This document shows, piece after piece, positions 45,437 to 53,782 of a stretch of 64,000 bases of DNA (position 1 is its first letter; each line of letters opens with the position of its first letter). The notes beneath the pieces are model-generated. The model was not told the origin of the DNA. It did no database searches and saw only the letters and a list, made by a program, of their open reading frames with translations. The position numbers and the translations under genes were made by a program. The stretch covers positions 17,668 to 81,667 of the forward strand of contig SVSM01000001.1 in NCBI GenBank assembly GCA_015064295.1, written 5' to 3'. The DNA is from Oscillospiraceae bacterium (GTDB lineage Bacteria > Bacillota > Clostridia > Oscillospirales > CAG-272).

Positions 45437-47125
45437 TTATTCGATGTTCAGCGACATGAGCTCCTGCAGACTGGTCACGCCGTTTTCCACTAACGTGCGG
45501 CAGGTGTTCCACAGCGGCGTCATACCGTTGGCAATGGCCTCGCGGCGGATCACGTCAAGATTCCGCTCGTGCATGACGGTGTTCTTCATCTTGTCGTTCA
45601 TATACATGACCTCGTGAACGGCGATCCGCCCCTTATAGCCCGTGTGATTGCAGAACTGACATCCCTTGGGACGGGCAATGGTGATGGGCTCATCGATGCC
45701 GAGGATCTCCATCTCCTTGGCATTGGTGCGGCCCTTTCGCTTACAGGCGGGACACAAGCGCTTCACAAGGCGCTGGGCAATGACGCCCACCAGGGCATCC
45801 ACCACGAGATAGTTATCGACGCCCATGTCCTGTAGTCGCAGGATTGCGCCGGGTGCATCGTTGGTGTGCAGCGTGCTGAACACCATGTGTCCCGTAATGG
45901 CGGAGCGTACGGCGATCTCGGCGGTCTCCTCGTCACGGATCTCGCCGATCATGATGACGTCGGGGTCCTGACGCAGAATGGAGCGCAGGGCGTTGGCGAA
46001 GGTCATATTTGCCTTGGTATTGACCTGTGTCTGATTGATCCCGTTCATGGTAAACTCCACCGGGTCCTCAACCGTTACGATGTTCACGGTGGGGTCATTC
46101 AGCTCCTTCAAGAAGGAATACAGGGTGGTGGACTTACCGCATCCCGTAGGCCCGGTCAGCAGGACGATGCCGTAAGGACGGGCCAGCATTTTGTCCACGA
46201 TGGCGTTTTCCTCGTCGGTAAAGCCCAGGTCGGCTCTGGTAAAGTGGAAGGAGCTTTTATCCAGAACGCGGATAACGAACTTTTCACCGAAAACGGTGGG
46301 AAGCGTGGATACGCGGAAATCAAATTCCTTGCCGCCCACGGTCATGTTGATGCGTCCGTCCTGGGGGACGCGGCGCTCGGCAATGTTCAGCCCTGACATG
46401 ATCTTAAGGCGTGCGCAAATGGCAGAGTATGCCTCAATGGGGAACTCCGCGCGGTTTTGCAGGTCGCCGTCAATACGGTAGCGCACCTTGACGTGCTTTT
46501 CGAAGGGCTCAATATGAATATCGCTGGCGCGATAGGGAATGGCTTCCTTAATGATCGAGTCGACCAGTCGGACGGCAGGGTTGTTGATGACATCGTTCTC
46601 GCCGGGCGCATTCAGCTCGCCCTTCAGCATGGCGCTGACCTGCTGCTCGGCCTTCTCGGCGTTCAGGTCGCTCAGGGCCGCCGAGGTGGAAATGGAGGCC
46701 GATATGGAATCCACGTAGCGGTCGATCTGTACCGGCGGCACCAGGATATAACTGCATTTACAGGTCAGCTGTGACGAGATCGCCGATCGGGCATGGCAAT
46801 CCAGGGGCTTGCCCGTGGCGACGATCAAAACACCGTTTTTGTCGTAGCAGACGGGAATGACCTTATGCTTCTTCATGAAATCGAAGGTAAACAGATCGAA
46901 AAGGGAACCGTCAAACTCCAGCATATCAATTTCGATATGCGGCATACAGTAATAGCTCGCCAGTGCCGGCAGCTCGGTGACCTCGGTGACCGCCTCCTTG
47001 GCAAGCAGGTAATCCCGTACGCCGATGTTCAGGCGTTTACATTCTGCCAGGACCTCCGGTATTTCCTTCTTTTTCAGAAGCTTTTTATAAACGTAAAATT
47101 GCAGAAGCTCGTAGTTGATATTCAT
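45437..47125 (-). CDS. pilB: Type IV pilus / T2SS assembly ATPase (PilB/GspE family)
   Basis: 562 aa. Walker A LTGPTGCGKSTT, Asp box and Walker B region (VIMIGEIRD), tetracysteine CPACKRK...CQFCNHTGYKGR. Confidence 0.92.
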   Translation of the reverse strand: MNINYELLQFYVYKKLLKKKEIPEVLAECKRLNIGVRDYLLAKEAVTEVTELPALASYYCMPHIEIDMLEFDGSLFDLFTFDFMKKHKVIPVCYDKNGVLIVATGKPLDCHARSAISSQLTCKCSYILVPPVQIDRYVDSISASISTSAALSDLNAEKAEQQVSAMLKGELNAPGENDVINNPAVRLVDSIIKEAIPYRASDIHIEPFEKHVKVRYRIDGDLQNRAEFPIEAYSAICARLKIMSGLNIAERRVPQDGRINMTVGGKEFDFRVSTLPTVFGEKFVIRVLDKSSFHFTRADLGFTDEENAIVDKMLARPYGIVLLTGPTGCGKSTTLYSFLKELNDPTVNIVTVEDPVEFTMNGINQTQVNTKANMTFANALRSILRQDPDVIMIGEIRDEETAEIAVRSAITGHMVFSTLHTNDAPGAILRLQDMGVDNYLVVDALVGVIAQRLVKRLCPACKRKGRTNAKEMEILGIDEPITIARPKGCQFCNHTGYKGRIAVHEVMYMNDKMKNTVMHERNLDVIRREAIANGMTPLWNTCRTLVENGVTSLQELMSLNIE

Positions 47126-47137
47126 ACTTCGACTCCT

Positions 47138-48352
47138 TTATACACCAAGACCGGTCATAATGGAAAGCATAGGCGAATAGACCGCCAAGAACAGCGTGCC
47201 AATGATCGCACCCATGATGATCAGCATAATGGGCTGGATCTTGCTGGTGATGGAATTCAGCGAGGTCTCTACCTGCGCGTCAAAGAAGGAGCAGGAGCGT
47301 GTGAGAACGTCGCTGAGGGAGTTGGTTCGTTCACCGATGGTGATCATCTGGATCATCATAGAAGGGAAGAGCTCGTAGCTTTCAAAGGCGTTGGTCAGCG
47401 ACATGCCGCTGCGGATCGCCTCGGAAGCTTGCCGGAATCTGCCTAACAGATATCGGTTACCCAATACGATCTCCGTCGAATACAATGCCTCGTTCAGATC
47501 CATACCGCTGGACAGTAAGAGCGCCAGCGCACGGGCAAAACGGGAGGTGATCATATTGAGCTGCACGGTTTTGATCAGGGGGATCTTAAGTTTCATGACG
47601 TCCACGTAGTAGCCGACGAACTCGGTGCGGGCAACGGCAAAGATCAAGAAGCCCACGACGACGACGCCTACCAGCAGGTATTGCCAGGTGCCCATCAGGA
47701 AGTCCGAAATGGCGTATACCGCCGCCGTCAGTCCGGTCACCTCCACGTCAAGCTTGGTAAGAGTCTCCCGGAAGGTGGGAATAACCAACACCAGCATCAG
47801 GATCACGATGCCGACTGTCATGGCGGCGAGCATCATGGGATATGACAAAGCGGCCTTCAGCTTTCTGCGGAGATCCGCGTCCTTCTCGTAGTAGTCGGAG
47901 AGGGAGTTAAACACCTCATCCAGCCTGCCGCTGAGCTCACCGACCTTGACCATGCTGCGGAAGAAATCCGGGAACACCTTTGCTTGCTTTTCCAGGGCAT
48001 CGGACAGGAGCGTGCCTCCCTTGACCTCCTCGTAAATCACTGAAAGGATGGAACGGAAATAGGAGGAATAGGACTGATTTTTCAAAATGTCAAGGCAGTC
48101 CAAAATGGGAATATGGGTGTTCAGCATAATGGAAAATTGGCGACAGAAGGCAGTCAGCTCCGAAATGCTGACCTTGCCCGTGCCAAGGGTAAAGAAGGCA
48201 GAGGGGGCACCGCCGTCGTAGGGCTTTGCCGAGACCAGAAACAGGCTTTGCTTGGCAAGCTGCTGCTCCAGGTCCTGCTCGTCCTTGGCAATAAACACGC
48301 CTTTTATTTTTTGCTTTTGCAGATTGATTGCCGTATACCGATATTTTTGCAT
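47138..48352 (-). CDS. pilC: Type IV pilus platform protein (PilC/GspF family)
   Basis: 404 aa. Duplicated T2SSF-type halves, 3-4 TM segments; immediately upstream of the ATPase gene. Confidence 0.9.
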   Translation of the reverse strand: MQKYRYTAINLQKQKIKGVFIAKDEQDLEQQLAKQSLFLVSAKPYDGGAPSAFFTLGTGKVSISELTAFCRQFSIMLNTHIPILDCLDILKNQSYSSYFRSILSVIYEEVKGGTLLSDALEKQAKVFPDFFRSMVKVGELSGRLDEVFNSLSDYYEKDADLRRKLKAALSYPMMLAAMTVGIVILMLVLVIPTFRETLTKLDVEVTGLTAAVYAISDFLMGTWQYLLVGVVVVGFLIFAVARTEFVGYYVDVMKLKIPLIKTVQLNMITSRFARALALLLSSGMDLNEALYSTEIVLGNRYLLGRFRQASEAIRSGMSLTNAFESYELFPSMMIQMITIGERTNSLSDVLTRSCSFFDAQVETSLNSITSKIQPIMLIIMGAIIGTLFLAVYSPMLSIMTGLGV

Positions 48353-52437: not shown

Positions 52438-53673
52438 TTATTGCGTTACACCGTTGACGGTGATGGTGCCCCACTGGGTACCGTCAGCCAGCACGCGGCA
52501 TGTGCCGATGGTGTTGTTGTTGGCAATGATGGTGCCGCCGGTGCTGTATACATAGAAGGCAGCGCCGGAGGTGTTGATCTTACAGCCGGATACCTTAGCG
52601 GTACCGCCGTTGGATACGGCAACACCTGCTGCGGGAGCAGAACCGACGGTGGCGTTAGCGGTGGTGATGACGCAGTCGATGAGCTCGGCGTTACCGGTGA
52701 TCTCGAATGCGGCGCCACTGGTGTTGATGGTCACGCCAACGAACTTGGCATTGCCGGGAACGTTGAAGCCGGCATGGGCAGTATAGGAGCCGCCCTCGAT
52801 CAGAATAGTAGCATCGCCGCCGAACTGATTGGCGTTCATCAAGAAGCCGTCATTGGAGCTGTCCACATAGTTAACGTTCTTCAAGGTGATGTTGACGTTG
52901 TCAGCACCGGGACGGAGCTTCACGAAGGCACCGTTATCGGTGTTGGCATTATAGTTACCGTTCTCCAGGGTAACGGTGCATTCCTTAACGGATGCGGGAA
53001 CGTTGACCATGCCGAATTTTCCGCAGTCGATGTCCTTGTCGCCGCCCTGAACCGTCAGCTTAGCGCCGTTGGTCATTTCCAGAGGACGGGAGGAGTTGTT
53101 GGCACCGCTCAGCTTGTGACCGTTCAGATTGATGGTCATGTCGCCCTTTACGGGGATGGTCTGATCCATGACGATGTCTTCGGTCAGAGTGACGTCGCTA
53201 CCGGCCTGGAGAGCTTCAACGATGTTCTCGGAATTTACTTCCACGTTGATGAACTTGGCGCCTTCCTTCAGAACCAGGGCCTTGCCGTCAGCCAAATGGG
53301 TGGCGAAGGACTCTGCCAGCTTCTTGTCGGTGGGGAACTTGACGGTCTTGCCGGCCTCTTCTACCAGCATAACCGTATTGTGCTCGCTGCACCAGTAGTA
53401 CTCGTAGCCCTTGGTGTGGGGCTCCAGAGCCAGGGCGTCAAAGCCGGCCTCTTCCAGAATGTCGATGACTTCCTTCAGGGTAGCGGGCTTTTCCTTAACG
53501 GATGCAGAGCTCAGCACCGTGTTCATCTCACGGGCGGCCTGCTCGTCGGAGGATACGTTCGCCTTCTTGATCAGACTGGAGAACGTGGGGATCAGCACTG
53601 CGGCCAGGATCGCAATCACAACGATTACAATGACCAGCTCGGTAATGGTGAAGCCTTTGCGCTCGTTTTTCAT
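52438..53673 (-). CDS. Large type IV pilin (411 aa): class III signal plus pilin helix fused to a beta-solenoid-like C-terminal domain
   Basis: Start at ATG 53673. Begins MKNERKG-FTITELVIVIVVIAILAAVLIPTFSSLIKKAN. The C-terminal ~230 aa is made of short x-V-x-I/L-x-G/N rungs (MTINLNGHKLSG, CTVTLENGNYNA, VNITLKNVNYVD, ATILIEGGSYTA, AKFVGVTINTSGAAFEI, AKVSGCKINTSGAAFYV). Confidence 0.75.
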   Translation of the reverse strand: MKNERKGFTITELVIVIVVIAILAAVLIPTFSSLIKKANVSSDEQAAREMNTVLSSASVKEKPATLKEVIDILEEAGFDALALEPHTKGYEYYWCSEHNTVMLVEEAGKTVKFPTDKKLAESFATHLADGKALVLKEGAKFINVEVNSENIVEALQAGSDVTLTEDIVMDQTIPVKGDMTINLNGHKLSGANNSSRPLEMTNGAKLTVQGGDKDIDCGKFGMVNVPASVKECTVTLENGNYNANTDNGAFVKLRPGADNVNITLKNVNYVDSSNDGFLMNANQFGGDATILIEGGSYTAHAGFNVPGNAKFVGVTINTSGAAFEITGNAELIDCVITTANATVGSAPAAGVAVSNGGTAKVSGCKINTSGAAFYVYSTGGTIIANNNTIGTCRVLADGTQWGTITVNGVTQ

Positions 53674-53753
53674 TTTTTTCCCATCCTTATTGATAAATTG
53701 ATAAAATTTACTCACGGTGCGTGAAAAAATTAAATGATTGTATATTCAATACC

Positions 53754-53782
53754 ATTATAACATGCCCAAACGGAAAATGCAA
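53754..53782 (-). promoter_or_regulatory. Sigma-A-type promoter of the pilus operon
   Basis: Reverse strand reads TTGCAT, a 17-nt spacer, then TATAAT with an extended TG (-35 at 53782-53777, -10 at 53759-53754). It is about 80 nt upstream of ATG 53673. Confidence 0.65.

Follow-up and report, generated by a model that had tools for sequence, protein, structure and literature searches.

Among type 4 filament machines, the Com pilus, with its eight components, counts as the minimal one (PMC10191384). The type IVa pili (T4aP) of monoderm bacteria carry PilM, PilN, PilO and PilT, and the sub-complex of the first three has been named as T4aP-specific (PMC6916266). The Com pilus works without PilM, PilN and PilO, whereas T4aP reportedly cannot (PMC10191384; PMC6916266). 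In Ruminococcus flavefaciens, the pilus genes follow the order pilM-pilC-pil1-pil2-pilD-pilB-pilT-pil3-pil4 (PMC3672088), and surveys of Gram-positive bacteria have found that the composition of pil operons varies widely (PMC3244431). The system described here is a type IV pilus operon of nine co-directional, closely packed genes, which occupies positions 45437-53673 on the minus strand of a 64,000-nucleotide stretch of DNA from an Oscillospiraceae bacterium (contig SVSM01000001.1, positions 17,668 to 81,667), hereafter called the window.

The reading that we favour, with somewhat better than even confidence, is that these nine linked genes encode a simplified, type IVa-derived and probably adhesive pilus of monoderm gut Clostridia (Oscillospiraceae / Faecousia-like). 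An earlier note on this DNA had already placed nine co-directional genes here, and all nine were found again, with identical lengths, in the independent gene calls of the Joint Genome Institute (JGI) for the same 174-kb metagenome contig. Seven of the nine products are supported by profile searches with Pfam and NCBIfam. In the order of transcription, the features of the locus are as follows.

53890..53925, minus strand: terminator hairpin of the upstream oxidoreductase gene, sequence aaaaagtccccaccgaaatcggtggggacttttt
53754..53782, minus strand: sigma-A-type promoter candidate, read from the sequence
52438..53673, minus strand: large modular pilin, 411 aa (N_methyl, AlphaFold2 model)
52377..52412, minus strand: stem-loop 1 (fold energy, recurrence across loci)
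51908..52348, minus strand: small pilin, 146 aa (N_methyl; signal MKKCNRKG/FTITE)
51841..51877, minus strand: stem-loop 2, conserved intercistronic hairpin
51277..51792, minus strand: minor pilin-like mp1, 171 aa (signal RTG/ITIAE; GTG start after GAAAGGAGG)
50829..51245, minus strand: minor pilin mp2, 138 aa (signal RRG/MTVVE; N_methyl)
50455..50829, minus strand: minor pilin-like mp3, 124 aa (signal RKG/AAIEL; orthologue conservation)
49282..50442, minus strand: divergent PilM-like protein, 386 aa (predicted fold)
48368..49171, minus strand: prepilin peptidase PilD, 267 aa (A24_N_bact and Peptidase_A24; GTG start after GGAGG)
47138..48352, minus strand: platform protein PilC, 404 aa (two T2SSF domains)
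45437..47125, minus strand: extension ATPase PilB, 562 aa (T2SSE and N-terminal MshEN-type domain)

The last three genes define the class of the machine. PilD matches A24_N_bact (E 5e-35) and Peptidase_A24 (6e-18), and its translation contains the CxxC...CxxC and GFGDVK motifs. PilC is covered by T2SSF in two stretches (2e-55), and the solved chain closest to it is PilC of Myxococcus xanthus (E 4e-54). For PilB, Pfam returned T2SSE (2.5e-136) and MshEN (3e-9); the translation carries the tetracysteine motif CPAC...CQFC, and the protein aligns over its full length with the T4aP PilB proteins of Myxococcus (M. xanthus) and Geobacter (E ~1e-116). Among the NCBIfam models, PilB reached 568 bits with the PilB model, which is below the equivalog cutoff of 676 bits, 556 bits with GspE, and 273 bits with ComGA (cutoff 300), the latter over residues 190-455 only. 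PilC scored 299 bits with GspF, 255 bits with PilC and 137 bits with ComGB (cutoff 240). As judged from these scores and alignments, the machine belongs to the class of T4aP and the type II secretion system (T2SS), with type IVa-like PilB and PilC, and not to the ComG class. The earlier label of 'type IV pilus / Com-like' therefore stands in its first half and fails in its second, since the PilB and PilC scores lie far above those of ComGA and ComGB.

Like the pil locus of S. sanguinis and the pil operons of C. perfringens and C. difficile, the operon encodes a PilB-type extension ATPase with N-terminal domains, a two-domain PilC, a prepilin peptidase PilD of the bifunctional type, pilins with a T4a-like alpha-1N segment (GFTxxE) and a PilM-fold protein, and a module grafted onto one of its pilins recalls the adhesion modules of S. 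sanguinis PilB and PilC (PMC8179133; PMC9934059). Unlike these monoderm T4aP, it lacks PilN, PilO and PilT both within the operon and in its vicinity, and the PilM-PilN-PilO sub-complex is represented by the PilM-fold protein alone; this PilM is unrecognisable by sequence and without glycine motifs, the pilins come first and the ATPase last, and the module of the modular pilin is a beta-helix.

The sixth gene had been called a divergent PilM-like gene in the earlier note, and this identification is borne out by the predicted fold only. The 386-aa protein had no Pfam or NCBIfam match at E up to 0.1 and no match among PDB sequences, and a 48-member profile of its family retrieved no PilM of the PDB. 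Its 281 word-index matches are all unnamed or 'hypothetical' and without a Pfam domain, and the few that carry organism names come from metagenome-assembled genomes (MAGs) of Oscillospiraceae or Ruminococcaceae. When the profile was searched against 1.84 billion representatives, 340 PilM-like proteins were collected, which form a closed family that does not grade into canonical PilM. An AlphaFold model made from 48 sequences (mean local confidence, pLDDT, 83.5; predicted template-modelling score, pTM, 0.79; disordered acidic loop at 252-288) gave as its top Foldseek matches the PilM structures of P. aeruginosa, M. xanthus and T. thermophilus (5eox, 5eq6, 5eou, 3jc8_Ma and 2ych; E 1e-14 to 3e-12 over ~400 columns), followed by FtsA (~1e-10) and then by the cytoplasmic domain of GspL/EpsL (1e-8 to 1e-9, ~210 columns). 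The PilM family profile (Pfam PilM_2 / IPR005883) was not matched, and the predicted structure has the actin-like (ASKHA) fold with a domain layout of the PilM/FtsA type. On this predicted fold, the sixth gene is a very divergent PilM.

The family columns VDxDxET, LLLDIKE (for DxG) and VYVNMP (for GG), which were placed by secondary-structure order without superposition, hold no conserved glycine. From that order, the protein appears to have lost the glycine-bearing nucleotide-binding loops and would have no canonical ATP binding. The cytoplasmic domain of GspL is known to lack canonical ATP binding. No transmembrane segment was detected in the PilM-like protein or in its family, the longest relatives included. 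Its C-terminus is near-invariant, one clade having ...LELFGGxYVKQ[YF]NK[IL]NNF and another ...GKF (...KQYNKLNNF in the window), with a terminal Phe in most orthologues, and the form ...NK[IL]NNF loosely resembles the monoderm PilN motif RD(MILF)N(FYW)FS (PMC6916266). A small subclade (L030-L034, L036, L039, L041, L050; P0246) has in place of ...NNF an extension of 40-90 aa that ends in an amphipathic stretch, e.g. LWAFIKKIATTEIGGK or LWAFIKKIATTEIGGKR. This extension is presumably similar to the helices by which FtsA and MinD are targeted to the membrane. The possibility that the longer relatives are PilM-PilN fusions was considered and rejected, since what they have in addition is either an enlarged acidic loop or the short amphipathic C-terminal extension, with no transmembrane segment.

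Whether the partners of PilM are missing or merely distant is the point on which the main rival turns. According to this explanation, which we regard as unlikely, the pilus is an ordinary type IVa pilus, differently arranged and not minimal, with PilN, PilO and PilT encoded in another part of the genome. Scattering of T4aP genes is common, and in C. perfringens pilT is not linked to the main pil operon. PilB and PilC are of the T4aP type, the contig, at least 174 kb long, is visible over 64 kb only, and the genome is a metagenome bin, all of which would suit such an arrangement. On the other hand, no second T2SSE-type ATPase was found in the window by tblastn with PilB, and no PilT, PilN or PilO by the precomputed JGI Pfam annotation and our own scans of the remainder; the dcw/ftsZ region of the window holds neither pilT nor ftsA (JGI Pfam). 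A profile check for PilN, PilO or PilT hidden in small open reading frames (ORFs), which had been proposed at the outset, returned none from Pfam or NCBIfam among all nine operon proteins. The search was extended to related loci through a scan of one genome per species, in which 108 loci were found and 80 kept (numbered with the prefix L), with flanks of up to 10 kb. None of the 80 has a second PilB/PilT-type ATPase within 10 kb, and short 'PilB-like' ORF matches in L054 and L072, considered as PilT candidates, were rejected as an ABC ATPase and SpoIIIAA. In characterised systems, pilM is reportedly beside or fused to pilN-pilO, for example in C. difficile (PMC6916266), whereas a candidate gene adjoins the PilM-like gene in 0 of the 80 loci, and the monoderm PilN motif of the same source is absent from all fetched loci and from the window, save for one false positive in an AraC-type protein. 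The earlier statement that the window has no PilN, PilO or PilT is thus upheld by tblastn and Pfam, and none was met within 10 kb of the 80 loci. Their absence from the whole genome, and hence the term 'minimal machine', is unproven.

The 80 loci are all metagenome-derived (MAGs and one Candidatus isolate, none from culture) and belong to Clostridia, with labels that include Faecousia, Oscillospiraceae, Acutalibacteraceae, Christensenellaceae, Lachnospiraceae, Candidatus Scatosoma, unclassified Clostridia and others. Wherever the contig continues, one to three pilA-type genes are followed by mp1, mp2, mp3 and the genes for the PilM-like protein, PilD, PilC and PilB, all on the same strand. Three loci depart from this order: in L035, PilD is missing from its place, in L062 the order is interrupted by an insertion, and L079 contains an additional pilin gene. 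Apart from L035, the PilM-like gene always adjoins PilD-PilC-PilB. Identity across loci is 66-91% for PilB and 30-63% for the PilM-like protein. The claim of an unusual pilins-first order holds up well, as the layout differs from those reported for Firmicutes (PMC3672088; PMC6916266) and is conserved across the 80 loci, in at least 80 related species. The gene order is a conserved operon variant, undescribed among characterised Firmicutes systems, and represents a known machine in a new arrangement, not a new kind of machine. Because pil operon variation has already been stressed in a survey (PMC3244431), the variant comes as less of a surprise.

Two observations on the related loci may be added. 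The insertion in L062 (8235-9784) consists of two unnamed ORFs (355 and 155 aa) between pilD and pilC, and is the sole interruption seen of the PilD-PilC-PilB block. Directly downstream of pilB, on the same strand, many related loci, unlike the window, encode a protein of ~900-950 aa, in which GAP1-N2 and GAP1-M (GTPase-associated protein 1) domains were recognised in the two cases scanned (L011:14984-17698 and L020:5844-8693); ORFs of similar size follow pilB in about two dozen loci (e.g. L006, L008, L010-L019, L036, L060).

The adhesive character of the pilus is suggested by its first pilin. This protein has the class III signal KG/FTITE and an N_methyl match (Pfam, E 9e-6), and its AlphaFold2 model (pLDDT 92.5) consists of an alpha-1 helix (10-57), a small head (~66-150) and a right-handed parallel beta-helix (~160-411), so that a pilin module is joined to a separate C-terminal module as in modular pilins. 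The Foldseek neighbours are all beta-helix proteins, namely the SRRP adhesin of L. reuteri, the epimerase AlgE4, polygalacturonases, alginate and pectate lyases and the adhesin PfbA. The suggestion, made previously, that the pilins act as adhesins gains support from this predicted module. A pilin of 100% identity is present at NCBI in a Ruminococcaceae MAG, annotated as a prepilin-type domain protein; 2283 relatives were matched through the N-terminal pilin part, and PF13229 (Beta_helix) occurs on 4 of 120 homologues among the matches listed. For more distant loci, the alignment of the first pilin is limited to the pilin part, approximately the N-terminal quarter, and lengths range from 336 to 1643 aa; in ten such variable pilins, Pfam recognised the N_methyl motif only, leaving the C-terminal modules without a Pfam name. 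The varying C-termini indicate, as far as sequence comparison goes, that modules are swapped, which fits the swappable adhesion modules known from modular pilins (PMC8179133). Four loci (L025:5969-8857, L026:14903-19384, L066:6853-11157 and L040:2270-7198) encode giant pilins (963-1643 aa) whose class III signal is normal, in the first three of them after pilB rather than at the operon front; Pfam named the N-terminal motif alone.

The 146-aa pilin is the probable major subunit. It has an N_methyl match (Pfam, E 8e-7), partial matches to the PpdD and PilA models (NCBIfam) and a good ribosome-binding site (RBS), AAAAAGGAG, and its ~66 N-terminal residues are 62% identical to those of the large pilin. 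The signals of the next three genes, RTG/ITIAE, RRG/MTVVE and RKG/AAIEL, are as they had been written in the earlier note, the third with its Glu at +4, not +5. The N_methyl match of mp1 is weak (E 0.036), and G-1 and E+5 are kept in its orthologues; mp2 has an N_methyl match (E 9e-6), a weak match to the N-terminal part of PilV (NCBIfam) and orthologues. For mp3, no family match was obtained, and its 38 orthologues, in which G15, E19 and W121 are invariant, share no Pfam family. The idea that mp3 might be a disguised PilN or PilO was rejected, given that the G and E of its pilin-type signal are invariant and that 0 of the 38 orthologues match PilN or PilO.

The cellulose-binding pili of Ruminococcus albus and R. 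flavefaciens belong to the same broad lineage of fibre-associated gut Clostridia; their pilins are adhesins to plant polymers, and PilM is annotated there while PilN and PilO are not named (PMC3672088). These systems differ from the present one in that they have PilT, another gene order and small (~14 kDa) pilins without a beta-helix module. The published pilus of TANB77, a group of uncultured gut Clostridia, was considered as the same system and rejected, as it is of the Tad type with TadZ, CpaF and TadB/C.

Expression of the operon appears to be more intricate than the transcription of nine genes from one promoter. The sequence TTGCAT, a 17-nt spacer and TATAAT are indeed present at 53782-53754, and the -10 box is of the extended type, a TG standing one base ahead of it. 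That this promoter is 'strong', as had been stated, is a judgement, because the -35 box matches the consensus at only 3 of 6 positions, which is below the -35 threshold of the scan tool, and the site was not listed by the scan. A TTGnnn-16/18-TAnnnT site precedes the first pilin gene by 67-150 nt in 10 of 11 close loci; in the eleventh, L007, promoter-like sites occur only at 11 and 161 nt. In C. difficile, pilA1 is controlled by a c-di-GMP riboswitch. Here, a riboswitch in the 5' leader was rejected, as an Rfam scan of 44800-54200 returned no noteworthy match.

The single-transcript picture needs to be refined because conserved stem-loops follow pilin genes 1 and 2. Stem-loop 1 (52412-52377), a GC-rich hairpin of 14 bp, lies directly 3' of the large pilin gene and is followed by GCATTTTT and then by the RBS of the small pilin. 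Its folding energy is -28.4 kcal/mol (z -4.4), 0 of 200 shuffled sequences fold equally well, and an equivalent stands at the same position in ~17 of the 33 loci that have two adjacent pilA-type genes. It is a candidate partial terminator or 3' mRNA stabiliser. Stem-loop 2 (~51877-51841), directly 3' of the small pilin gene, was identified in 33 intergenic regions, and RNAalifold on 25 of them yielded 15 pairs, 8 with compensatory changes and with CAC/GTG invariant; T-runs are found downstream in many loci. It is a candidate attenuator or terminator, and would point to the 146-aa pilin as the major subunit. Its being a dispersed repeat was rejected, the core being unique within the window.

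A DNA-uptake (competence) pilus, that is a ComG analogue in Clostridia without comG, must also be weighed, and seems improbable. The ComG pilus of Bacilli is likewise encoded in a compact single operon, whose products are five pilins together with a peptidase, an ATPase and a platform, without PilN, PilO or PilT, and the parts here number one more than the eight of the Com pilus (PMC10191384), the addition being the PilM-like protein; no retraction ATPase was found nearby, and radA, ~2 kb downstream of the operon, gives a weak hint in the same direction. In contrast to the ComG system, however, the ATPase and the platform are long and of the T4aP type, the ComGA and ComGB models giving far lower and partial scores, the peptidase lies within the operon, the operon includes a PilM-like gene, which is missing from Com systems, the large first pilin bears a beta-helix or another sizeable module, variable and of a sort typical of adhesins, and no ComEA/ComEC-type family occurs in the JGI Pfam annotation of the window. 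The comG order is GA-GB-GC...GG, with GA first, and the order here is reversed.

Some features are shared with the gsp/pul operons of the T2SS. The gsp operon order is gspG-K, L, O, which is resembled here by the succession of major pilin, minor pilins, actin-fold protein of the L/M type and prepilin peptidase. A retraction ATPase (PilT) is lacking from the gsp/pul operons and, in the window and within 10 kb of the 80 loci, from this system as well, GspF is the best NCBIfam model for PilC, GspE nearly equals the PilB score, and the cytoplasmic domain of GspL is among the structural matches of the sixth protein. A T2SS-like endopilus, in which a short piston-like filament would push protein through the wall, as has been proposed in a preprint for another pil gene set, the second one of C. 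perfringens (bioRxiv 10.1101/2024.11.04.621531), is nevertheless the least probable explanation, given that the operon has no conserved candidate substrate gene, that the secretin GspD, GspC, bitopic GspL and GspM are absent from the Pfam and NCBIfam results for the nine proteins and the window, that PilM and not GspL is the best full-length structural match of a protein that has no transmembrane segment, and that a large surface module on a pilin argues for an exposed filament. The operon also differs from those of the T2SS in that the PilM-like protein is unanchored while GspL is bitopic, that the E and F genes come last in the order F-E, and that the host is monoderm. The competence and endopilus explanations are both less likely than that of PilN, PilO and PilT encoded elsewhere.

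For the simplified adhesive pilus that we favour, the assembly steps can be derived from the standard type 4 filament model (PMC10191384); what the analysis itself shows are the gene identities, the folds, the synteny and the conserved hairpins. PilD would cleave the five prepilins, and a PilB hexamer, the PilC platform and the soluble PilM-like protein on the cytoplasmic face would polymerise the 146-aa pilin into a filament, with the three small minor pilins priming assembly and sitting at the tip. The beta-helix module of the 411-aa pilin might bind, and possibly cut, polysaccharide, leading to adhesion to plant-fibre or host glycans. The PilM-like protein would act without PilN and PilO, perhaps by means of the conserved tail at its C-terminus, which would dock on the body of the protein itself or serve as a short anchor in the membrane; alternatively or additionally, the protein might bind the N-terminal domain of PilB, as GspL binds GspE. 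The two stem-loops, read as attenuators or 3' stabilisers, would hold pilin transcripts above those of the machinery. What we infer on this basis are piliation, adhesion, independence of PilN and PilO, the absence of retraction and the function of the hairpins.

Several points weigh against this scheme. The likeness to PilM is structural only, with TM scores of ~0.45-0.5 and an identity of 11-15%, and PilN, PilO and PilT could be encoded beyond the 64 kb seen. The Foldseek matches of the beta-helix are weak (best E 4e-3, none <0.001), and assign a fold class alone, with no ligand or activity. Stem-loop 1 immediately precedes the presumed major pilin gene, which would be odd for an efficient terminator.

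A further step would be that the T4aP-class pilus is built with a self-sufficient PilM-fold protein, with no PilN or PilO anywhere in the genome. We advance this tentatively, as possible rather than probable. The conserved tail would then be the remnant of a PilM-PilN fusion, docking in the groove of its own molecule or of a neighbour, or else a short membrane anchor in the style of FtsA.

The spacing of the genes and the surroundings of the operon remain to be described. The start of mp3 overlaps the stop of mp2 by one base, and the gaps are short between mp3 and the PilM-like gene (12 nt), PilD and PilC (15 nt) and PilC and PilB (12 nt), and long between the large and small pilins (89 nt), the small pilin and mp1 (115 nt) and the PilM-like gene and PilD (110 nt). 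The upstream edge of the pilus unit is set by the terminator (53925-53890) of the neighbouring gene, a GFO_IDH_MocA oxidoreductase (JGI Pfam), and at the downstream edge 4 bases separate the end of pilB from that of a convergent DUF5658 gene. Elsewhere in the window are a dcw cluster and genes for MurJ, Wzy_C, UvrC, PGK, TIM, RadA and other housekeeping functions. The dcw cluster runs mraZ ... murG-ftsQ-ftsZ, without ftsA between ftsQ/POTRA (9697-10560) and ftsZ (8422-9549), both on the minus strand (JGI Pfam). In C. perfringens, pilT-ftsA-ftsZ occupy what we take to be the equivalent place.

Two adjoining DUF4330 proteins of 173 and 164 aa are encoded beside MurJ and a Wzy_C protein at ~26285-27302 of the window (minus strand; L083:11964-12985), and the N-terminus of the large pilin has a weak DUF4330 match (E 0.024), probably due to its hydrophobic helix. 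Cys-rich repeats of the type TCxxxGxxxYTCxxCG occur in a 353-aa lipoprotein downstream of the operon (window 43865-44926, plus strand) and in a ~270-aa insertion of the mp3 orthologues of L016-L019 (L016:8748-9980, L018:8823-9980), and the C-terminus of the small pilin (~51911-51990) has such a repeat as TCSICG; no Pfam match was found at any of the three places.

With T4aP-type PilB and PilC and only a degenerate PilM, the nine-gene cassette would offer a means of testing what part PilM, PilN and PilO play in the assembly of type 4 filaments. If PilN, PilO and PilT are encoded at other sites of the genome, what is left is an operon variant that is neat but ordinary; the main value of the finding is the PilM-only composition, if whole-genome scans bear it out. 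Should it be true, the PilM-alone system would stand, as a natural intermediate, between the Com pilus with its eight components and the complete T4aP machine, and would also be a simple test bed for the role of PilM in filament assembly. The operon is widespread in uncultured gut and rumen Clostridia and carries a swappable surface module on its pilin, here a predicted beta-helix of a type known from adhesins and lyases that bind polysaccharide, which suggests that such pilins may be a common means of attachment to dietary fibre or mucus.

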